DNA of 11,086 nt from Dictyostelium discoideum (lineage: Eukaryota), in assembly GCA_000004695.1 (NCBI GenBank), contig CH709148.1, positions 1-11,086 of the forward strand, in the 5' to 3' direction. Position 1 is the stretch's first letter. Each line of letters begins with the position of its first letter. The position numbers and the translations under genes were made by a program. This document shows, piece after piece, positions 1-11,086 of this stretch. Below the pieces are notes generated by a model, which saw nothing but the letters and a program-made list of their open reading frames with translations, ran no database searches and was not told the origin of the DNA.

Positions 1-363
1 ATATCATACTATATATGTGTAAAGCAGTTCATCTTCTTCATCGTTAATTAATTCTTTACTAGAATTTAATATCTTTGGACGATTGAATATGTTTACAGTA
101 TAGTTTTTATCTTGAACATTTGTTAACTCTGTTGGAGTATTAAATTCAATCTTCTGTGGTTTATACTTCATCTCTGATTCAACAGCTTTTGGAATTGGAA
201 CGGTTGTATCAGGAACTAGTTTTATACCATATGAGTCTTTGACGTATTCTTTAAGTTTGTTGATGTTTTTATGAACATCATGTTGCTGGCTTTGTTGATG
301 TAACTGTTTAACAATGTTTTGATTATAAAAAGAGTTAAGAGTATAAAGTGAATCTTTGTTCAC
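1..363 (-). CDS. pro (retropepsin) N-terminal region, partial; same frame as the NC ORF after a single TGA
   Basis: AVESEMKYKPQKIEFNTPTELTNVQDKNYTVNIFNRPKILNS is shared with ORF 9297-9755, which continues to the protease active-site DTG (in LILDTGSNV). 714 and 363 are both 0 mod 3. Confidence 0.6.
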
Positions 364-1640: not shown

Positions 1641-2300
1641 TTAAATATAATTTAATTTTATAATTTAATTTTTTAATTTAATTTACATAATTTAATTATA
1701 TAATTTAATTTAATTTATTTAATTTAATTTAATTTAATTTTTAATTAAATAATTAAATATAAGTATTAATATATGTTAACTGTTATTCCACTAATATATT
1801 TTTATTGTGGTGTCTTTATATTATTTAATTGATAATAAATATTATCTTAAATTATTTTAATTATAACAATGCATCAATATAACTGTTATTCCACTAATAA
1901 TTTATATTGTGGTGTCTTTATTTAACTGTTATTCCACTAATAATTTATATTGTGGTGTCTTTTTTAACTGTTATTCCACTAATAATTTATATTGTGGTGT
2001 CTTTATTTAACTGTTATTCCACTAATAATTTATATTGTGGTGTCTTTGTATTTGAGCATTATTATTAAATTAATTGATACAATCTTGTTTTATATTACTT
2101 TATAAAAGATGCATGTTTACAATGTGAGTAGGAAGTGTCGTTGTACCGCCTAAGCAGTACAGCGTTAATCTTGCAAACAGAAGGGCCATTGTAATGCATT
2201 TTTATTTTGTTTTAAATACTACTGTTATTCCTCTAATCTGAAGAGTCGACTTCTTCATCATGAGGTGTCATTGTATACGAAATATAAGGATTGTATCTAA
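1641..2300 (-). repeat. Putative LTR / upstream non-coding region of the Skipper-like element, internally repetitive
   Basis: Lies immediately 5' (on the minus strand) of the candidate PBS and gag start. Contains (AATTT)n-like low complexity at 1625-1780, a 43-bp tandem array, and diverged partial units at 1778-1822 and 2219-2280. Boundaries are not determined. Confidence 0.3.
1881..2051. repeat. Tandem array, 4 units of 42-43 bp (AACTGTTATTCCACTAATAATTTATATTGTGGTGTCTTTATTT)
   Basis: Direct reading: units start at 1881, 1924, 1966 and 2009 with only 1-3 substitutions. A diverged fifth unit lies at 1778-1822 and a half-unit relative at 2219-2280. Confidence 0.85.
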
Positions 2301-2952
2301 TTATTTGTTTTAATGTATTTGTTTTATGTTAAAATTAGAAAAAAAAAGTGTAAAAGTCACTCACACTAATCTTCAATCCATTGTTCAATCTTTAATCAAA
2401 CAGTCCAATCTTTAAAGTAATGTTTTTTAATATGAAGGATAGAAAGAGTGAAAGACTAATATAATAAAAGTAAACATACATAAAAGAGATAATTAAAAGT
2501 AAGGGCGTTATGAAAACTAAACCAAAAATCAGAATTTTTATTATTTTTTTTAAATTTTAATTTAATTTTATTTTATTTAATTTAATTTTTTATTGTTCAA
2601 CTGAAAAAATAAAAAATTAAAAAAATAAAAATTAAAATTTAATGAAATATTTTTACATGGAGATGCGCGAATTTGTTACGTTGTTGAGCTCATACTAACT
2701 TTAAATTAATTTAGTTTTGAGTCTCTAACAACTATAAAAAGAAACTAGGTTTCTAATTCAAACTCAGTAATAAATATATACAAATAATAAAAACACGATA
2801 GGGCTACTGTCATCAATTAAATATATGTGTACATTTATTTCTTAAATAATTAATTTTAATAATAATAAAATAAATAAATTCAGTAATAATAAAACAATAA
2901 TTAAATTAATAATATAAATAACCAAATTTTATTAAAAAATTTTTTTTAAAGA

Positions 2953-2960
2953 ATGTCAAC

Positions 2961-2996
<36 letters not shown>

Positions 2997-3192
2997 TAAT
3001 AATAATGAAGATATTGATAACGATGAATTTCAACAACAGGATAGTGAGGAACAACAACAACAACCACAGGTATCAACATTCAATGAACAGCAACGTCAAA
3101 TAAGGGAACAGCAGCAGGTAATAGATAAACAAAATCAACTTCTTCAACAACACATTCAATTAATAAATCAACAATCTAATAACAAAATATAA
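2953..3192 (+). CDS. Small N/Q-rich ORF (79 aa: 15xAsn run, poly-Gln, coiled-coil-like QQ repeats); possible short gene or first exon
   Basis: ORF track. AT-rich upstream region with TATAAAAAG at about 2735. Codon usage (aat, caa) is typical of Dictyostelium. GTAA-type donor-like site at 3118. No recognisable domain. Confidence 0.35.
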
Positions 3193-3195
3193 AGA

Positions 3196-3699
3196 GATAT
3201 GGGATGCAAATCAAGTATTTAAGCACTTATCTACTATCAAAGTCATCCCCAAGTACACATACACTGCACTATTAAACAAGACACTTGTACTCTGTAAAAT
3301 GTTTGGTTTAGCATATCATCAGACTTGGTGAAGTGGTCTTTCAAAGGTCTCATTATTACTCCTGACTCAATCAAAGGTCCAGTTATTAATTGTAATATCA
3401 ACACTCTCAAAGTCAGGCATTGATATTGTCAAGTTCAAATCTCACTCTACCCGTTTCGCTATGGCTTCTCTGCTGTTGTCCAATAACGTTCTGTTTCACG
3501 TTGTCAGAAGATGGATCGTTGGAAATAAAATGATACTGTAGAGACCTTCTCCGAAAAAAGAATCATTGGTGAAAAATCTGGTGGTTTCTTAAATACTGTC
3601 GTCCAAATTTCATAATATATATATATATATGATAATATAAATTAAAAATTTAATTTATTAAATTATATTTTATATTAAATATATATATATATTAGTCCC
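3196..3699 (+). other. Unassigned GC-richer non-coding stretch immediately inside an ITR copy; possibly the degenerate 3' internal end of a DIRS-1-like element
   Basis: Only short frameshifted ORF pieces on the plus strand (about 40 aa each). Position directly adjacent to the inner end of the 3700-4035 ITR copy. No direct homology visible within the window. Confidence 0.2.
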
Positions 3700-4035
3700 A
3701 TCCCACCCGCCCTTAGTCGGAATTCCATAAATCATATTGTTTTAGTTTTTAGTGCCACTATTTATACGTTTTTATTTTCTTAAAAATTTCGCAAAACTCA
3801 AAAAAATAAGTGTTTTCGACCCTTCACAAATTTCGTGCATAGTGTCGGTTCGGAATTTTTATGTTTTTGGACCTTGTGCAATGATAGCGTCATTGTGCCG
3901 GTTCGAAATTTTTACTTTTCTTTCGAAAATTTTTTATTCTTCGAATGTTCTAGAACATTCTAAAAAATTATCTTAAATATTTGGGAAATTCAAATAAATA
4001 AATGTTATTCATAATATATATATATAATTAATATA
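3700..4035 (-). mobile_element. DIRS-1-like inverted terminal repeat copy (right-ITR-type inner end), outer end at about 4035
   Basis: Reverse-complement match to 10006-10390 over about 300 bp and direct match to 9121-9344. Contains tandem nGAAnnTTCn heat-shock-element units. The outer end carries a (TA)n run. Confidence 0.6.
3937..3960. promoter_or_regulatory. Heat-shock element (TTCTTCGAATGTTCTAGAACATTC; 4-5 contiguous alternating GAA/TTC units) inside the ITR
   Basis: Direct reading. The same element is at 9325-9344 and 10067-10092. DIRS-1 ITRs are known heat-shock promoters. Confidence 0.65.
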
Positions 4036-4109
4036 AATTCGTTTTTCAATAATCAACAGTAGTCTCTGATTTCACGGGAAACTTCTCATCTTTTTCAGAT
4101 CTGAATCAC

Positions 4110-4563
4110 TTATTAATTCCGGCAATATTGCATCTATAATCTGATCAGCTTGAGCATTTAATGAATTCCTACAATGAGGGTTATTTGGAACATCATGATT
4201 CTTTTTCATTGGAAACTTCTCAGCAGTATTAGATGCCGAATCTGAAGGTCTTCTTCTTGATAACTTGTCAGCATTGTTAAGGACAGTCTGGTAAAACCAT
4301 CTTTAGCAAAGAAAGGTTACTACTATCTAAAATTGATCTTATATACTCTAATTAAACATCAGCTGTATCATGGATGAGATACACCTGATTAACTAACTCA
4401 TAATGGATTCGATGTTTTTTAGGACGAGTAGCAGTTACGATTGCTAATAGCGTCCACTTCTTTAATGTTGGCAGCTTCGTAGTTTTGACATGGACCAAAG
4501 TTTAAAGTTAAAGTGGATAAGCTTCTTCAAAGTTTTACCTTCAATTTTATCGTTGTTATTAAC
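4110..4563 (-). pseudogene. Degenerate, internally deleted copy of the Skipper-like gag capsid region
   Basis: Collinear DNA similarity to 610-1195 with several deletions and many substitutions; no intact ORF. Confidence 0.6.
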
Positions 4564-4786
4564 TTAAAAATCAAAAAGTTTAAACCTCGTCATCTGGATT
4601 GGCTAAAACAGGTTCAAATAATGGAGATGGTACCCAAAAACACCCATTTAGGTTGGGTTCTTAGTTATCGTTAGAGAATACAATTATTCGAGACGATCCA
4701 AATAATTAGTTTCATAAATTGGTCAAAATCAATTCATAATATAATAAAGGTAATGTGGGGAAAAAATCTATTTGATTTTTCCAAAA

Positions 4787-5069
4787 CTATACCATATTAA
4801 GATGGTAAGTGGAAGTAATGTTAGTCTAATCAAAAAGAGGTTGATTTCAAAAGAGATGAAGAACCACTTTCACAAAATCAAAGCCAAGGTTGAATTCCCG
4901 CTACTAGACGTCAAATAAGAGTTTGTTGAACAAATCAATATACAAGTTAACAATGAAATTCATAGCTTCTTTATAAAAGAATTGGATATCATTTATGTAC
5001 TTTTCGGTAATGAAATACTTAAGGACTCTATCATTAACCAAAAAGATAAAATAATCAAGTTGGATAATA
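4787..5069 (+). pseudogene. Skipper-like protease (pro) fragment on the plus strand, truncated at 5069 by the TIR element
   Basis: 4811-4867 is about 93% identical to the reverse complement of 9351-9407. The translation ...GSNVSLIKKRLISKEMKNH... then *EFVEQINIQVNNEIHSFFIKELDIIYVLFGNEILKDS contains a retropepsin hhG-x-(D/N)-x-L-like motif. One in-frame TAA at 4916 and a degenerate DTG region. Confidence 0.55.
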
Positions 5070-5815
5070 CACAGCTAAGAAAAATGCACCTTTAAAGCAA
5101 ATTTAAAGCAAAGTTGATTTAAATTGGATTTAAATTGAATTTAAAGCCGCGTTTAAAAAATTCATTTTTAAGGTAATTTTTAAGGTAATTTTTAAGATAT
5201 TTAAAAATGCCTTTAAAATTTGCTTTAAATTAAATTTTTAAGCAATTTTAAAGGTGATTTTAAAGGTAATTTTAAAGGTGATTTTTAAGGTAATTTTTAA
5301 GATAATTTTTAAGATATTTAAAAATACCTTTAAAATTTATTTTAAATTAATTTTAAATAGGATTTAAAGTAGATTTAAAGTAGATTTAAAGTGAATTTAA
5401 ATTTCCTTTAAACATAAATTTAAGGTTTTTAATAAAAAAGATCTAATTTTAGAACAAAAAAATGGGGATAAAATATTCTATCATTTTTAAATTTTTCATC
5501 AAAGCAATCAAATGGTGTAATGGTTGATGAGACTATCCTTTGATAGAGGGTCGGGGGATCGAATCCCTTTTGGTAATTTTTGAAAAATTAAAAAAAAAAT
5601 TTAAAAAATTTATCCGTTAAATAACGGCTTCGAACTCAGGACCTCGCTTTTAAAGCGATTAAAAAGGTAATTTTAAAGGTAATTTTAAAGGTAATTTTAA
5701 AGTAACCTTAAAAATTACCTTTAAAATTACCTTTAAAATTGCTTTAATTCAGGACTTTAAAGCAAATTTAAATTTAATTTAAAGCGAATTTAAAGGTGGT
5801 TTTTTCTTCGCTGTG
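5070..5815 (+). mobile_element. Unclassified non-autonomous TIR element, copy A (746 bp), with subterminal GGTAATTTTAAA / ATTTAAAG repeats and a central tRNA-like module
   Basis: Terminal inverted repeats: CACAGCTAAGAAAAATGCACCTTTAAAG versus the reverse complement of the end, CACAGCGAAGAAAAAACCACCTTTAAAT. A 97-98% identical second copy at 6852-7610 has different flanks. The flanking dinucleotide TA is found on both sides. Confidence 0.5.
5505..5575 (+). other. tRNA-related pol III promoter-like module (box A TGGTGTAATGG at 5513-5523; box B GGGATCGAATCCC at 5555-5567); pseudo-tRNA, not foldable as a canonical cloverleaf
   Basis: Box A matches 9/11 and box B 10/11 of the consensus (TRGCNNAGTGG / GGTTCGANTCC), spaced about 43 bp apart. 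TGGTGTAATGGTT resembles the D-loop of Glu/Gln-type tRNAs. The acceptor and D stems do not pair. Confidence 0.3.
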
Positions 5816-5956
5816 TAGTTCGATCCAGAATAATTTTAAACAGTCAAATCAATTACATTGTAATGTAAAATCTCCATCAATTATTAATATTAATTAATAT
5901 TATCATTATATAGGGTATTATTATTATTAATATTATTTTAATATTTATAAAAAAGG

Positions 5957-6648
5957 CAACTAAATGACCGATTACTTTGAATCAATATCAATTATTGTTT
6001 GTAAATCACCAATAATTACACAATCATCCTCATCATCACTGAATGTGATGTATAAGTCATCAAGAAGCTCAATCATCAAACCTATAAAGCATTTGACCTC
6101 CTTTTGATCAAAAGGTGGTATATTATTGATGAGTTATACTTTCCCATTTTTGTAAGAATGAATTCTGATGATTCTTTATACTGATCATAGAGAAGCCAAA
6201 CGATGTGATTACTGAATACATGGATATCGCCACATTTTTTACAACTCTTGTTTCTATTTGAATATACTAATTTTGTCTGATACCAATCATATAAACAATT
6301 GAGTTAACACATATAAAGGTTTTATCTTCTTTGATATTGTTAAAATAACCCATCACACCATTGTACTGGTCTACATTCGAGATCAATTTACTCATCATAA
6401 ATGACCCTTTGGTGTCTTCAGATTTTGAAAGAATCACCACAAAGGCATTTTTTGGTTTGTGATGAGGAGGTTGTTGGGGACATAAATGATGAATGTGATG
6501 AAGTTGTTGAGGTAGTTGTTGAAGAGGATGTTGATATTGATGGTTTGGTTAGTGAAGATGTGGTAAATGTTGTTGTTGTGGTTTTTATTGTGGATTTCAA
6601 AAACTCTTCATTAATCAATTGGTTGTTTTCAACCAAAGGAATTAACAT
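5957..6648 (-). pseudogene. Degenerate minus-strand gene remnant: T/S-rich ORF (6648-6418) followed by frameshifted ORF pieces down to 5957
   Basis: ORF track 6418-6648 (M...TTTTTFTTSSLTKPSISTSSSTTTSTTSS...). Manual translation of 6417-5957 gives four contiguous open pieces in shifting frames (MMSKLISNVDQYNGVMGYF..., YIQIETRVVKNVAISMYSVITSF..., MIELLDDLYITFSDDEDDCVIIGDLQTIIDIDSK*). No domain recognised. Confidence 0.3.
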
Positions 6649-6680
6649 TTACAACTTCTTTTTATTCAATGTTTTTTGGA

Positions 6681-6717
6681 CAATAATAATGATAATAATT
6701 ATAATTATAATTATAAT

Positions 6718-6765
<48 letters not shown>

Positions 6766-6776
6766 TATTATTATTT
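6681..6776. repeat. (AAT/ATT)n microsatellite, about 30 units, preceded by (ATAATT)n
   Basis: Direct reading. It generates the poly-Ile run in the spurious plus-strand ORF 6401-6805. Confidence 0.9.
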
Positions 6777-6851
6777 ACCAAGTTTCAATCTCTTTTTATC
6801 TCTAATGTCTTTTTCTTCTTTTTCTTTTTCAATTTGTTTTCCAATTTGAAT

Positions 6852-7610
6852 CACAGCAAAGAAAAATGCACCTTTAAAGCAAATTTAAAGAAAAGTTGAT
6901 TTAAATTGGATTTAAATTGAATTTAAAGCCGCGTTTAAAAAATTCATTTTTAAGGTAATTTTTAAGGTAATTTTTAAGATATTTAAAAATGCCTTTAAAA
7001 TTTGCTTTAAAATAAATTTTTAAGCAATTTTAAAGGTGATTTTAAAGGTGATTTTAAAGGTGATTTTTAAGGTAATTTTTAAGATAATTTTTAAGATATT
7101 TAAAAATACCTTTAAAATTTATTTTAAATTAATTTTAAATAGGATTTAAAGTAGATTTAAAGTATATTTAAAGTGAATTTAAATTTCCTTTAAACATAAA
7201 TTTAAGGTTTTTAATAAAAAAGATCTAATTTTAGAACAAAAAAATGGGGATAAAATATTCTATCATTTTTAAATTTTTCATCAAAGCAATCAAATGGTTT
7301 AATGGTTGATGAGACTACCCTTTGATAGAGGGTCGGGGGATCGAATCCCTTTTGGTAATTTTTGAAAAATTAAAAAAAAAATTTTAAAAAATTTATCCGT
7401 TAAATAACGGCTTCGAACTCAGGACCTCGCTTTTAAAGCCATTAAAAAGGTAATTTTAAAGGTAATTTTAAAGGTAATTTTTAAGGTGATTTTAAAGTAA
7501 CCTTAAAAATTACCTTTAAAATTACCTTTAAAATTTTTTTAATTCAGGACTTTAAAGCAAATTTAAATTTAATTTAAAGCGAATTTAAAGGTGGTTTTTT
7601 CTTCGCTGTG
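6852..7610 (+). mobile_element. Unclassified non-autonomous TIR element, copy B (759 bp), direct orientation relative to copy A
   Basis: Collinear with 5070-5815. Differences are a few substitutions and one extra 13-bp subrepeat unit. TIRs are CACAGCAAAG...CTTCGCTGTG. The flanking dinucleotide AT is found on both sides. The tRNA-like module is at 7286-7356. Confidence 0.5.
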
Positions 7611-7619
7611 ATTTATCCT

Positions 7620-7925
7620 TGTCCAAAACATGTCTGCTACTGTTAACAATATTTAAGCCTCTAGTAGTTACTCTGCCTGAATCCTTTGATTTAAGAATGA
7701 AATCAATGGAGGATCAAATCAACAACATTTCCTTAGCCTTTACCATATTCATGAAAGAAACTATGTTCTCTTCAAATATGAACTCTCCTAGCCAACGTTC
7801 TCATGATGACTCTGACACCGAGAATGAAAAAAATAAAGAAAAAAGTAACAATGTCGATGTTCCAACTGACTATCAATTATCCTATTCCTTACTTGTTCAA
7901 GGTTTATTCGTCGAAAAAAGAATGT
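7620..7925 (+). pseudogene. 5' fragment of a DIRS-1-like ORF1, lacking its ITR and abutting TIR element copy B
   Basis: The translation ...ESFDLRMKSMEDQINNISLAFTIFMKETMFSSNMNSPSQRSHDDSDTENE...NNVDVPTDYQ is collinear with ORF 10436-10702. Homology ends at about 7925. Confidence 0.5.
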
Positions 7926-9039
7926 AAGAAAGAACACACAGGAATCGTCAGAGCATTCACTGACTATATTGACTTCAGAATACTTATAAATCCACCATTC
8001 TGAACGTCAATGGAAGCAATGAACTGATTCAGAATTGGTTGGTTTATCGTGCCTCTATCGGGATGTATCCCTAAGGCGAGATTAAAGAAACTGAACTGAA
8101 TGCCGCTAAAGCAAATTCATGCAGCTGATTTTAAAACACCGGTAATAGTGGAGATGGATACCAATCATATGATAAGGTTGATGAGGATGTTAATATAGAA
8201 GTGAAGACAACCTTAATATAACATATGTTAGAGTCAAGGAATACGATAAAGGAAAGAATAAATGAGGTCATTTTAAAATTATTGACGAAAGAGTAATCAA
8301 GAAGAGAAGGACAGAAGGTCATCAAAGTGATAATGAGGATAACAATAGCGATGATATCAGTGGCTACGACAGTGGATAAAAGAAGGTGCATCATATGGGC
8401 TTCTTTTGTGCTCATCTTCCTTCTCTTCTTCTGTCGAAGAGAAGCATTAAGCTCAGGCATCTCCTGGACTCCCTGTTCGAGATTCCACTTACAAGTGAAC
8501 TTCAATGAACATATAATCAATGCCTGTCTCAGCAAGATCTATGAGAGAGAATGGGAGACACAGTACCCCAGAGCATGAGAATTATTAATAAGCACGGAGA
8601 GAATTATTAATACCTTCCTCTTTCTCAGATTGGTTGTTATGAAGGGTTCAAGGTCCTACCTTATCATTTAGGACTTTGTTGGTGTCTTATCAATAAAAGA
8701 TATTGGATTTGGATGCATCAATACTATTCTCTTTAATATGGGTCCTTATTACTATGTTATGGACTTTTTCTACAATGAAAAGTATACTTTTCATTGTAGT
8801 AAAAGTCCAAGAAAAGTTTATGTCCTCTCCGACTGATGACGACAACAACATATCAAACGAGGTTATAGACAGTGGTTCAATCTCAGTAAGATAGGAGGAG
8901 GAGGAGACTGTAGGAAGAGGTGCCTTGAAAGTCTTGTTCAAGGAGGAATCGATTTTGAGAGCAAGACACGTAGACTAAACCAGTGAAGGGTACCTGAACG
9001 TTAAGTAATTAATATATGTCACATATTACAGAGGACAAT
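7926..9039. other. Unassigned GC-richer sequence with only short overlapping ORFs on both strands; probably a degenerate repeat-element interior
   Basis: No ORF over 134 aa, no recognisable motif, and a base composition unlike the AT-rich intergenic DNA here. The right end abuts the inner end of the ITR copy at 9040. Confidence 0.2.
8761..8808. repeat. 48-bp near-perfect palindrome (22-bp arms GGACTTTTTCTACAATGAAAAG / CTTTTCATTGTAGTAAAAGTCC, 4-nt TATA spacer, 1 mismatch)
   Basis: Direct reading. It explains the mirrored peptide WTF(S/T)TMKSILFIV in ORFs on both strands (8703-8894 plus, 8690-8941 minus). Confidence 0.85.
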
Positions 9040-9344
9040 TAATAAAGAGAAATAATTATTTGTATAAAATTTGTGTGTGTATCTTAAATATATAGGAAGA
9101 ATTCCCAAATAAAATAAATCAAATTGTTTTAGTTTTTAGTGTCACTATTTATACGTTTTTATTTTCTTAAAAATTTCGCAAACTCAAAAAAAAAAGTGTT
9201 TTCGACCCTTCACAATTTCGTGCATTGTGTCGGTTCGGAATTTTTATGTTTTTCGACCTTGCGCAATGATCGCGTCATTGTGCCGGTTCGAAATTTTTAC
9301 TTTTCTTTTGAAAATTTTTTTTTATTCTTCGAATGTTCTAGAAC
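9040..9344 (-). mobile_element. DIRS-1-like ITR copy (left-ITR-type inner end), truncated about 65 bp at the outer end where it joins the retrotransposon pro sequence
   Basis: Reverse-complement match to 10070-10385 and direct match to 3728-3958. Heat-shock element at 9325-9344. The junction reads GTTCTAGAAC|GTGGTTC. Confidence 0.6.
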
Positions 9345-9928
9345 GTGGTTCTTCATATCTTTTAAAATCAACCTCTTATTGATTAAACTAACATTACTTC
9401 CAGTATCGAGAATTAATTTGAATTGTTTTTCTTTGGAATGAGAGTTAATTATAATCTTGGGTTTATCCATGTTTTCTCTGTTTGGAACGATTAAACATTT
9501 GAGAGTCGGAATGAGAGCAGTATCACTTGTACCAGTACTATGTAATAATGAGATGATTGGTTTGTTTGTTTCTTTATCGAATTTAATTGTGTAAAGCAAT
9601 CCATCTTCTTCATCGTTAATTAATTCTTTACCAGAATTTAATATCTTTGGACGATTGAATATATTTACGGTATAGTTTTTATCTTGAACATTTGTTAACT
9701 CTGTTGGAGTATTAAATTCAATCTTCTGTGGTTTATACTTCATCTCTGATTCCACAGATTTTGGAATTGGAACGGTTGAACTAGTTTTATACCATATGAG
9801 TCTTTGACGTATTGTTTAAGTTTGTTGATGTTTTTATGAACATCTTGTTGCTGGCTTTGTTGATGTAACTGTTTAACAATGTTTTGATTATAAAAAGAGT
9901 TAAGAGTATAAAGTGAATCTTTGTTTAT
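9345..9928 (-). pseudogene. Second copy of the Skipper-like gag C-term / pro N-term, including the retropepsin active site (LILDTGSNVSLI); broken by an 8-bp deletion
   Basis: 9591-9928 matches 18-367. ORF 9297-9755 carries DTG. The deletion of TATCAGGA relative to copy 1 near 9770 shifts the frame. The final 15 residues of that ORF are read from ITR sequence, not from protease. Confidence 0.7.
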
Positions 9929-10040
9929 ATTATCATATATATATATATATATATATAATGAATAACATTTGAATTTCCCAATTTATATTATCATATATAT
10001 ATATATATATATATTATGAATAACATTTATTTATTTGAAT
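9929..10040. repeat. Junction with a tandemly duplicated ~50-bp ITR outer terminus (TATATTATCA(TA)nATGAATAACATTT...GAATTTCCCA appears twice)
   Basis: Direct reading; (TA)8-9 microsatellites are present in both units. Confidence 0.6.
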
Positions 10041-11086
10041 TTCCCAAATATTTAAGATAATTTTTTAGAATGTTCTAGAACATTCGAAGAATAAAAAATT
10101 TTCGAAAGAAAAGTAAAAATTTTGAACCGGCACAATGACGCGATAATTGCGCAAGGTCGAAAAACTGAAAAATTCCGAACCGACACTATGCACAAAGTTG
10201 TGAAGGGTCGAAAACTCTTATTTTTTTGAGTTTTGCGAAATTTTTAAGAAAATAAAAACGTATAAATAGTGGCACAAAAAACTAAAACAATTTGATTTAT
10301 TTTATTTGGGAATTCCTCCTATATATATTTAAGATACACACACACACAAATTTTATACAAATAATTATTTCTCTTTATTAATTTTTAATATTATTATTTT
10401 TCTCATATTATAATTTTAGATATCAACAATAAAATATGTCTACCACTGTTAATAATAATGATGCCTCTAGTAGTAGTACCTCTGCCTCTAATAGCGCTGA
10501 ATCCTTTGATTTAAGAATGAAATCAATGGAGGATCAAATCAACAACCTTTCTTTAGCCTTTACAAGATTCATGAAAGAACCTATGTTCTCATCTAATACC
10601 AATTCACGTAGCCAACCTTCTCATGATAACTCTGACACCGAGAATGAACAAAGTGATGATGAATCAAGTAACAATGTCGATGTTCCAACCGATTATCAAT
10701 AATCCGATACCTTACTTGGTCAGTACAAACATATGGTAAACAATCAAGGTTTACTCGTCGAAGAAGAATGTATCCTCAAGAAAGATGAGATATCCGAATT
10801 GAATAAAGTATTCAACTTTCCATCTAACTTCCAAGTGAATGTCGCTCCATTCGGTACACCTGAAGGTATTACTGTATCATCCAACGTCAAGAACAATGAT
10901 ACTGAATTGTTGATTGTTGAAAAGCGAATCAACGATAGCTTGAAACCTTTGCTTCTCATGTCAAGTATGTTATCATCTGATAGCTCTAATGTCGATGTAG
11001 AACTTATTAGTTACTTAACTCAGAGTGCAATCATCTTAGCTGTTAATGCTCAAGCATCGCTTAGTCGTGTCCGTCGTAACAACATC
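10006..11086 (+). mobile_element. Left end of a DIRS-1-like tyrosine-recombinase retroelement: left ITR (10006-10390) plus the start of ORF1, running off the window
   Basis: ITR with heat-shock element at 10067-10092. The ORF begins 45 bp after the ITR. Orientation is opposite to the other two ITR copies. Confidence 0.6.
10436..11086 (+). CDS. DIRS-1-like ORF1 (gag-like), open to the window end apart from one in-frame TAA at 10700-10702; possibly a pseudogene
   Basis: ORF track 10436-10702. The same frame stays open from 10703 to 11086 (...GLLVEEECILKKDEISELNKVFNFPSNFQVNVAPFGTPEGITVSS...). Relative to the 7620 copy there is a 24-bp in-frame insertion and TTA changed to TAA. Confidence 0.5.

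Follow-up and report, generated by a model that had tools for sequence, protein, structure and literature searches.

The repeats of Dictyostelium discoideum were reportedly catalogued by Glockner et al. (2001), with DDT-A, DDT-B, DDT-S, thug-S and thug-T among them. The DDT and thug families have been described as putative cut-and-paste elements with transposases that match no known family (PMC5633606). The A/B-box of the DDT-B transposon is a landing site of TRE5-A, which targets tRNA genes (PMC9012585), and small RNAs derived from a hairpin have been reported for thug-S (PMC4894637, PMC6161686). Elements of the CACTA/Mirage/Chapaev group possess invariable 5'-CAC/GTG-3' termini (PMC4079192). 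Duplications of 2-5 bp have been described for this CMC/CMCT clade, as has the motif order D..D..C(2)C..H(3)H..E for CACTA/Mirage/Chapaev transposases (PMC12730594, PMC4079192).

The window analysed here, a stretch of 11,086 nucleotides of D. discoideum (contig CH709148.1), lies close to one end of a chromosome-sized contig, in a centromere-proximal transposon cluster rich in DIRS-1, and its positions 2008-11086 show a 99.99% match to locus L005 of assembly GCA_054883475.1. Within it are two copies of one element, here termed A and B. The preferred reading, with a probability of roughly 0.85, is that they are independent insertions of a single family of ~750-bp non-coding, non-autonomous cut-and-paste elements, which is mobilised in trans and is CACTA/Mirage/Chapaev-like. 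The features of the region are as follows.

5068..5069, TA target-site duplication to the left of copy A (filled versus empty site)
5070..5815, + strand, copy A, ~750-bp non-autonomous transposon (746 bp)
5070..5096, + strand, left terminal inverted repeat of copy A, CACAGCTAAGAAAAATGCACCTTTAAA
5164..5313, + strand, left subterminal 12-bp array of copy A, ATTTTTAAGGTA type (copy B equivalent, 6946-7095)
5506..5576, + strand, decayed tRNA-like module of copy A: A-box-like TGGTGTAATGG, B-box-like GGATCGAATCC 43 nt downstream, then TTTT (copy B equivalent, 7288-7358)
5614..5647, - strand, tRNA T-arm/B-box-like segment of copy A on the opposite strand, reverse complement GCGAGGTCCTGAGTTCGAAGCCGTTATTTAACGG (copy B equivalent, 7397-7430)
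5663..5747, + strand, right subterminal repeats of copy A, (AAAGGTAATTTT)x3 facing (AAAATTACCTTT)x2-3 (copy B equivalent, 7446-7535)
5789..5815, - strand, right terminal inverted repeat of copy A, reverse complement CACAGCGAAGAAAAAACCACCTTTAAA
5816..5817, TA target-site duplication to the right of copy A (filled versus empty site)
5816..5876, + strand, first 61 bp of the intervening DNA, continuation of the retroelement interrupted by copy A
5877..6851, - strand, rest of the intervening DNA, with a frame-shifted ORF remnant, outside the transposon
6850..6851, AT flank to the left of copy B, presumed 2-bp duplication
6852..7610, + strand, copy B, the same element in the orientation of A (759 bp)
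6852..6878, + strand, left terminal inverted repeat of copy B, identical at 27/27 positions to the terminus at L009 3123
7584..7610, - strand, right terminal inverted repeat of copy B
7611..7612, AT flank to the right of copy B, matching the AT at 6850-6851

An earlier note on this DNA had described two near-identical direct copies bounded by terminal inverted repeats, and both observations hold, the copies lying at precisely the coordinates given there. Copies A and B are 98.5% identical over their aligned bases, the differences amounting to a single 12-bp repeat unit, a single base of an A-run and ~11 substitutions. The terminal inverted repeats of each are ~27 bp in length (CACAGC...GCTGTG); the left end reads CACAGC(T/A)AAGAAAAATGCACCTTTAAA and the reverse complement of the right end CACAGCGAAGAAAAAACCACCTTTAAA. 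Imperfect inverted symmetry extends past the termini for ~150 bp at 74%, and the element as a whole folds as a snap-back structure (z = -13.9). Copy A has no coding capacity, its longest ORF being 37 amino acids.

Dense subterminal direct and inverted repeats, also described previously, were confirmed by motif counts and TRF. Each copy carries 11-12 of the 12-bp repeats, and AAGGTRATTTT occurs 23 times in the window against an expectation of 0.09, all 23 occurrences falling inside copies A and B. TRF identified 12-bp arrays and a 105-bp unit present at 1.8-2.1 copies. The latter is the internal tandem duplication previously put at ~100 bp; in copy A (5164-5285 versus 5281-5398) it includes the left subterminal array. 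The subterminal repeats are likely to be transposase-binding sites. Those at the right of copy A form a near-perfect 35-bp hairpin (RNA fold -42.2 kcal/mol, z = -11.3), for which Rfam gave only sub-threshold matches to microRNA hairpins (mir-548 and similar). A mir-548-type identity was rejected, as these scores reflect an AT-rich hairpin alone.

Members of the family were sought in ~190 kb of related sequence. Four further full-length copies were identified there (L007 15710-16457, L011 16685-17441, L012 16969-17725 and L012 18241-18998), bringing the total with A and B to six, with identities of 98.1-99.5%, both pairwise among the six and between copy A and the other five. CACAGC...GCTGTG termini are located at the exact ends of all six, as well as of a diverged subfamily copy in L013 (~82% identical). 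Further pieces comprise one copy cut by the end of a locus, several fragments, and a 56-bp mini-element in which one terminal repeat is joined to the other. Two candidates were discarded: L006 6066-7503 is not a single 1.4-kb ORF-bearing element, as it contains a DIRS-derived fragment and its 56-bp unit (7448-7503) is a separate mini-element; and L011 13048, considered as the genuine left terminus of an autonomous variant, proved to be a 138-bp fragment nested in the larger element. No copy was found in a 22-kb sample of D. citrinum, a result that is uninformative. Exact-pattern scans gave four unrelated bacterial matches among bacterial and archaeal genomes, and none among viral or metagenome contigs.

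The flanking dinucleotides are identical in all eight elements with both ends readable (TA in six, AT in one and GG in one). The chance of such matching is ~0.082 per element and ~2e-9 overall, and the consistent target-site duplication that the earlier note had proposed to look for is one of 2 bp. For copy A and the L007 copy, an exact duplication of TA is seen on comparison with paralogous empty sites; the filled site of copy A, ..ggataaTA[element]TAgttcg.., corresponds to ..gaataaTAgtacat.. at the empty one (L007 17725-17782). No empty site was found for copy B with its AT/AT flanks. Comparison of the outer flanks, left of A and right of B, showed them to be mutually unrelated, as had been stated. 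The unrelated sites occupied elsewhere, the target-site duplications and the paralogous empty sites support the earlier view that these are mobile copies and not a segmental duplication. Target duplications are 8 bp in length for hAT elements and 9-11 bp for Mutator elements. The hAT/Mutator-like affiliation proposed in the note is unsupported because the duplication here is 2 bp.

A larger partner with the same terminal repeats, which the note had suggested searching for, was identified. This ~3.9-kb relative was pieced together from L012 14381-16469 and L009 1-3123, a complete copy in one piece not having been seen. The end at L009 3123 is that which is identical to the left terminal repeat of copy B; the terminal 150 bp of the relative are 80.6% identical to those of copy A, and its only observed end has an AC flank. 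Located ~600 bp inside the L009 3123 end is a 573-aa ORF, a putative transposase, with copies in L011 and L012 (96-97% amino-acid identity) and an 806-aa paralogue in L008 (~54-56% identity). The L008 and L009 paralogues have the motifs LLRIFTD(G/S), GLTMDIPEF, CHTC, FHLLLHYP and TSAE(T/R)FEAQ in common. The order of motifs in the 573-aa ORF is D, D, C(2)C, H(3)H, E, with catalytic residues assigned by eye. The L009 ORF is without the first ~250 residues of the L008 paralogue, and therefore that copy may itself be defective. The termini, the 2-bp duplication, the lack of a transposase ORF and the existence of an ORF-bearing relative with the same termini uphold the identification of the ~750-bp element as a non-autonomous DNA transposon with terminal inverted repeats. 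Judging from its termini and subterminal similarity, it would be mobilised in trans by the transposase of the ~3.9-kb relative.

The DNA between copies A and B is 1036 bp in length. Its first 61 bp are matched at L007 17753-17813, L009 4072-4132 and L012 7302-7362 and, over positions 16-61 only, at L011 20735-20780 (84-91% identity); the L007 match directly adjoins the sequence found left of copy A. As the flanks of copy A are contiguous in this L007 retroelement and a TA duplication is present, copy A is a simple insertion, and as it interrupts the retroelement, the 61 bp belong to the host retroelement. The remainder holds the decayed ORF and the microsatellite that had been reported previously, namely the minus-strand ORF remnant and (AAT)n at 6682-6765, together with a pyrimidine-rich stretch. 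At 82% identity, positions 6210-6508 match L006 7697-8003, a region coding for the hypothetical protein P0002; no other homologue of 5877..6851 was found in the sampled sequence, and P0002 has no homologues beyond itself. The possibility that this DNA is the remnant of a sister element's transposase was rejected as unsupported (P0002 versus the L009 ORF, BLASTP E = 0.26; tblastn with the transposase finds nothing in the window).

The earlier note had proposed that 5070-7610 could move as a composite, with A and B as arms carrying the 1-kb cargo as a unit, in the manner in which bacterial IS-flanked composites move theirs. The arrangement has the look of one, both copies being direct and intact, 1036 bp apart and with intact outer termini. 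However, copy B carries matching AT/AT flanks of its own, the dinucleotides outside the pair, TA before A and AT after B, do not form a duplication, and the cargo is missing from all other copies, occurring nowhere between such elements in the ~190 kb sampled. Because the cargo never recurs and the flanks of copy A are contiguous in the paralogue, the composite is rejected as highly improbable. Its appearance arises from two same-orientation insertions ~1 kb apart, in a stretch where transposons have repeatedly inserted into each other. Near-identical direct repeats around ~1 kb, each with LTR-like short inverted termini, could also suggest a miniature LTR retrotransposon in which the 750-bp repeats are LTRs around a short non-coding interior. 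LTR retrotransposons and TRIMs have direct repeats, one shared 4-6-bp duplication, a primer-binding site and a polypurine tract. Here there is no 4-6-bp duplication around 5070-7610, a primer-binding site is not recognisable after the first repeat, and the + strand before the second is pyrimidine-rich instead of a polypurine tract. The repeats also occur singly at other loci, with their own 2-bp duplication and empty site, and A and B (98.5% identity) are no closer to one another than A is to unlinked copies (98.7-99.1%). This explanation can be given next to no credence, and independent insertion of two family members is preferred to both.

The other question is which transposases move the family. 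Mobilisation by a Tc1/mariner/pogo transposase, as for a Stowaway-like miniature element, would be in keeping with the small, AT-rich and hairpin-capable nature of the element and with the excess of TA among its duplications (6/8, where TA forms 8.9% of dinucleotides; P ~1e-5). Tc1/mariner integration occurs strictly at TA, however, whereas two of the eight duplications are AT and GG, and AC flanks the only end of the larger relative that was observed. That relative, the only ORF-bearing one with the same termini, has no Pfam match to Tc1/mariner or pogo, and its ORF has the C(2)C / H(3)H pattern instead. CACTA-type elements typically end in CAC..GTG and carry dense arrays of subterminal repeats, and those of the present family point in that direction. 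A Tc1/mariner-type origin is accordingly considered unlikely. The termini, duplication length, subterminal repeats and ORF motif order suggest that the family would work like the CACTA/Mirage/Chapaev DDE group. As the putative transposase has no significant Pfam match and no match to any solved structure, this assignment consists of short motifs recognised by eye together with terminal features.

The tRNA-like module is kept in every copy and shows unusual conservation across subfamilies, being 94% identical in the subfamily copy that is ~82% identical overall. Four B-box matches occur in the window (0.24 expected), all of them within copies A and B. The Rfam tRNA model spans the module end to end, scoring only 12.4 bits where the gathering score is 29; ARAGORN called no tRNA there, and its RNA fold is no better than that of shuffled sequence (z = 0.10). 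The surviving tRNA features are limited to the A-box, B-box, T-arm and 6/7 acceptor pairs. On the basis of the Rfam score, the ARAGORN result and the fold, a tRNA gene or tRNA-derived SINE was rejected. In a truncated L011 copy, an element inserted 23 bp upstream of the module was considered as a tRNA-gene-targeting retrotransposon and found to be DIRS-type (RVT_1, RNase H and Dam). A tentative and rather doubtful proposal is that the family keeps the module under selection as a functional RNA polymerase III/TFIIIC-binding site. If it were true, the module could provide safe landing pads for tRNA-gene-targeting retrotransposons, form a chromatin boundary or aid the element's own propagation, and it would answer the question about DDT-B left open by Barth et al. 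2022 (PMC9012585).

The effect of these findings on genome annotation is small, as they concern routine nested transposons in a DIRS-1 cluster of a model organism, and the useful outcome is a negative one, in that two insertions that happen to lie close together account for the composite appearance. For specialists, the points of interest are the TA-biased 2-bp duplications, backed by clean empty sites; CACTA/Mirage/Chapaev-like hallmarks, seen in the family together with its ~3.9-kb ORF-bearing relative, in a species whose DNA-transposon transposases were described without recognisable relatives; and the retention by a short element of a tRNA-like A/B-box module similar to the one that recently proved to attract TRE5-A in DDT-B.

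Compared by published descriptions, in which nothing demonstrably sets it apart, the family is probably one of the already catalogued DDT or thug families, which the earlier note had reasonably listed as candidates; by its size and non-coding nature, a DDT-S or thug element would be the best guess at a name. The literature mentioning thug-S or DDT gave no sequences that could be matched to the element. The likeness lies in the same species and the same transposon-cluster habitat, in the putative cut-and-paste nature of elements with transposases unlike any known family (PMC5633606), in the A/B-box-like module, which recalls the A/B-box motif of DDT-B (PMC9012585), and in the 35-bp near-perfect hairpin, which recalls the hairpin source of small RNAs in thug-S. 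Like Stowaway and Tourist MITEs, the element lacks coding sequence, ends in terminal inverted repeats, is AT-rich and multi-copy, can form hairpins and is presumably trans-mobilised; unlike them, it exceeds the typical MITE size at 750 bp, contains internal tRNA-like modules and has a duplication that is strictly neither TA (Stowaway) nor TAA (Tourist). With the CMC/CMCT clade, especially Mirage and the TA-duplicating EnSpm-like 'ESTA', it shares CAC...GTG termini, a 2-bp duplication within the range of 2-5 bp and subterminal repeat arrays in both orientations. Read by eye, the partner ORF resembles those of the clade in the placing of candidate C(2)C and H(3)H motifs, which follow a second acidic motif of DxP type and precede an FE motif (PMC12730594, PMC4079192). 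It differs in that this ORF is without significant similarity to the Pfam transposase models of the group, and in that the duplication is TA-biased and not of arbitrary sequence; classical CACTA elements make duplications of 3 bp, whereas those of this family are 2 bp.

The earlier note described two direct copies of an element with terminal inverted repeats (TIRs), subterminal repeats and a ~100-bp internal duplication, and reading of the window bore out every detail. The features of these copies are as follows:

5070-5815: copy A, 746 bp, in direct orientation relative to copy B
6852-7610: copy B, 759 bp, in direct orientation relative to copy A
5506-5576 (copy A) and 7288-7358 (copy B): tRNA-like module (AATCAAATGGTGTAATGGTTGATGAGACTATCCTTTGATAGAGGGTCGGGGGATCGAATCCCTTTTGG), near the element centre
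5614-5647: T-arm-like piece, on the opposite strand to the tRNA-like module

The two copies are 98.5% identical over aligned bases, differing in one 12-bp repeat unit, one A-run base and ~11 substitutions. The left end of each reads CACAGC(T/A)AAGAAAAATGCACCTTTAAA and the right end (...TTTAAAGGTGGTTTTTTCTTCGCTGTG) is near-complementary to it, with imperfect inverted symmetry reaching ~150 bp into each element; the predicted self-folding of the whole element is far stronger than that of shuffled sequence (z = -13.9). The window has 23 occurrences of AAGGTRATTTT against 0.09 expected, all of them within copies A and B. Tandem Repeats Finder identified arrays with a 12-bp unit and ~2 repeats of a 105-bp unit in the copies. 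No ORF of >37 aa was found within copy A or copy B. Opposed 12-bp repeats at 5664-5745 and 7447-7535 form a near-perfect 35-bp hairpin (z ~ -11), for which Rfam gave sub-threshold hits to microRNA families derived from MITEs, mir-548 among them. As thug-S elements have reportedly been found to give small RNAs, this hairpin could be a Dicer substrate.

Using DIRS-1 reverse-transcriptase proteins as bait for transposon-rich loci, ~190 kb of Dictyostelium DNA (loci labelled L) was sampled. Four further full-length copies were found, a count of copies having been proposed in the earlier note, together with a subfamily copy and a mini-element:

L007 15710-16457: full-length short copy, on the same contig as the window and 8.5 kb beyond it
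L011 16685-17441: full-length short copy
L012 16969-17725: full-length short copy
L012 18241-18998: full-length short copy
L013 ~5039-5790: subfamily copy in another strain (assembly GCA_054859385.1), 82% mean column identity in alignment, TA/TA flanks
L006 7448-7503: 56-bp mini-element, left TIR joined almost directly to right TIR, TA/TA flanks

The sample also gave one short copy ended by the locus boundary and several fragments. Full-length copies are 98.1-99.5% identical in pairwise comparison, A and B being no more similar to one another than either is to unlinked copies. An extreme internal deletion could have given rise to the mini-element.

Consistent target-site duplications, which the earlier note had proposed to look for, are present: all eight elements with both ends readable have matching flanking dinucleotides (TA in six, AT in copy B and GG in one). 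The chance of such a match is ~0.082 per element, or ~2e-9 across the eight, with TA accounting for only 8.9% of dinucleotides. The L007 copy splits a DIRS-1 recombinase ORF (...ctgtagaTA[element]TAccttctacg...), the empty site being seen in an intact DIRS-1 2 kb away (...ctgtagaTAccttctacg...). Similarly, the filled site of copy A (...ggataaTA[element]TAgttcgatcc...) has an empty counterpart in a paralogous retroelement (...gaataaTAgtacatac...). These two paralogous empty sites show that the short element is a bona fide cut-and-paste-type insertion, which duplicates 2 bp with a TA bias.

The proposal that copies A and B form a composite transposon, moving the intervening DNA (the cargo, 5816-6851) as a unit of 5070-7610, fails. 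At the empty site of copy A, the sequences that flank it on the left and on the right join as one uninterrupted retroelement, and thus 5816-5876, the initial 61 bp of the supposed cargo, are that retroelement resuming after copy A; this retroelement also has these 61 bp in L007, L009 and L012, and only the last 46 bp of them in L011. Copy B possesses AT/AT flanks of its own, the outer flanks of the proposed unit (TA left, AT right) show no duplication, and the cargo was not found between two elements elsewhere in the sampled DNA. What remains of it consists of a minus-strand frame-shifted ORF remnant, an (AAT)n microsatellite and a pyrimidine-rich tract. The stitched translation of the remnant matches two hypothetical proteins of Dictyostelium discoideum, and the only relative of this DNA is an 82%-identical stretch of L006 encoding hypothetical protein P0002, a search for homologues of which found no others. 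A miniature LTR element was rejected on the same grounds, as solo copies have duplications of their own. Two same-orientation copies 1 kb apart are what one expects by chance with six copies within a few tens of kb.

A larger element provides a candidate for the autonomous partner with the same TIRs that the earlier note suggested seeking. At its end at L009 3123, the terminal 27 bp are those of the copy B left TIR exactly (27/27), and with the next ~125 bp included, the terminal 150 bp are shared with copy A at 80.6% identity. An ORF of 573 aa starts ~600 bp inside this end, reading inward. The opposite end of this element type was located at L012 14381 (CACAACGATGAAAATTACACCTTTTAAAGC), with subterminal repeats similar to those of the short element, and the L012/L009 overlap gives a length of ~3.9 kb. 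Further ORF copies in L011 and L012 show 96-97% amino-acid identity, while a paralogue in L008 (~54-56% identical; 806 aa when rebuilt across two frame-shifts) possesses a cysteine-rich N-terminus. Neither the 573-aa ORF nor the 806-aa paralogue matched a Pfam family or solved structure, in agreement with the published statement that the transposases of Dictyostelium DNA transposons are unlike any known family (PMC5633606). Both share the motif order LLRIFTD(G/S), GLTMDIPEF, CHTC, FHLLLHYP and TSAE(T/R)FEAQ, read as D, D, C(2)C, H(3)H and E, an order also described for transposases of the CACTA/Mirage/Chapaev group (PMC12730594).

At L011 13048-13185, 138 bp from the 5' part of the 750-bp element lie inside the ~3.9-kb element with a ~35-bp target duplication around them, as if insertion or repair had been aberrant or abortive. 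In the larger element, the putative transposase gene also carries two insertions of a second short family with related termini (CACAGCGGCGAAAATCAACAC... or CACAGGGGCGAAAAAAAACAC...), which has tRNA-3'-half-like modules in tandem (GGGAGGTCACGGGTTCAATTCCCAC) as well as palindromic repeats of the ACTTAATAAGTAT type in long arrays:

L011 15176-15520 and L008 16771-17300: second short family
L008 2681 and 11815, L009 19730-20114, L012 1630: modules similar to the second short family

With regard to superfamily, the 2-bp duplication rules out hAT and Mutator, to which the earlier note had likened the elements. Tc1/mariner (Stowaway-like) elements would account for the TA bias, but the duplications of AT and GG, the AC flank at the L009 end and a partner ORF lacking any Tc1/mariner domain count against this reading. 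Dense subterminal repeats are classic in CACTA elements. The CACTA/Mirage/Chapaev clade has 5'-CA..TG-3' termini and 2-5-bp duplications, with an EnSpm-like lineage with TA duplications described (PMC12730594), and the 5'-CAC/GTG-3' ends are invariable (PMC4079192). Based on motif order, termini, short duplication and subterminal repeats, the family appears to work like a CACTA/Mirage/Chapaev-type element and may belong to this group, the protein evidence being at motif level only.

The tRNA-like module, found in every copy, combines an A-box-like TGGTGTAATGG with a B-box-like GGATCGAATCC, which lies 43 nt downstream and precedes a T-run. Four B-box matches (<=1 mismatch) occur in the window, all inside copies A and B (0.24 expected). 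A tRNA gene was rejected: ARAGORN identified none, the Rfam tRNA score of 12.4 bits fell short of the threshold of 29, and folding was no better than shuffled. Despite this score the Rfam model aligns end to end, and by eye the T-arm and 6/7 acceptor pairs are kept, with the D and anticodon arms lost. In the L013 subfamily copy the module is the most conserved part (94%, 67/71) compared with ~70-80% for flanking subterminal segments by the same measure, a single comparison that gives no more than a hint of constraint. The module's relevance lies in the finding of Barth et al. (PMC9012585) that DDT-B contains an A/B-box motif upstream of which TRE5-A integrates, the role of this motif for the transposon being left open there. 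In the one truncated copy looked at (L011 1411-1758), no tRNA-targeting retroelement was found next to the module; interruption by one was rejected, as a DIRS-type element cuts this copy.

One of the two hypothetical proteins matched by the ORF remnant is encoded on contig JBTAPE010000033.1 (4.89 Mb; assembly GCA_054883475.1). This contig agrees with window 2008-11086 at 99.99%, the locus lying 28-50 kb from the contig end in surroundings dense in DIRS-1 (reverse transcriptase and tyrosine recombinase) and other retroelement fragments. Centromere-proximal transposon clusters of this kind are known for D. discoideum (PMC5633606, PMC3950715). Further repeat pairs of the window (16-360 with 9588-9925; 3727-4038 with 9114-9344 and, inverted, 10002-10300; 93-96% identity) correspond to terminal parts of DIRS-1 and to other pieces of retroelements in L005 and L007, making the whole window a nest of transposon fragments. 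At 1837-2090, a 42-43-bp unit (TAACTGTTATTCCACTAATAATTTATATTGTGGTGTCTTT...) forms ~5 tandem repeats. At 904-2320 and 6128-6790, L010 (D. cf. discoideum, JBTAPI010000064.1) carries bacterial-looking EPSP synthase, HisG and DUF1840 genes and a GC-rich stretch, between DIRS and other transposon sequence; contamination or a chimera in the assembly could explain them, or possibly horizontal transfer.

From its size, absence of coding and larger ORF-bearing relative, we take the short element to be probably DDT-S or a thug element. Complex repeats of D. discoideum have been catalogued (Glockner et al. 2001), with three groups of DNA transposons reported, Tdd, DDT and thug (PMC5633606). Given its many near-identical copies, the family will almost certainly have been included in that catalogue; it was absent from the bacterial/archaeal genomes, viral DNA and metagenome contigs scanned. 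For specialists, novelty might lie only in the CACTA/Mirage/Chapaev-like hallmarks and in the short element's conserved A/B-box-like module.
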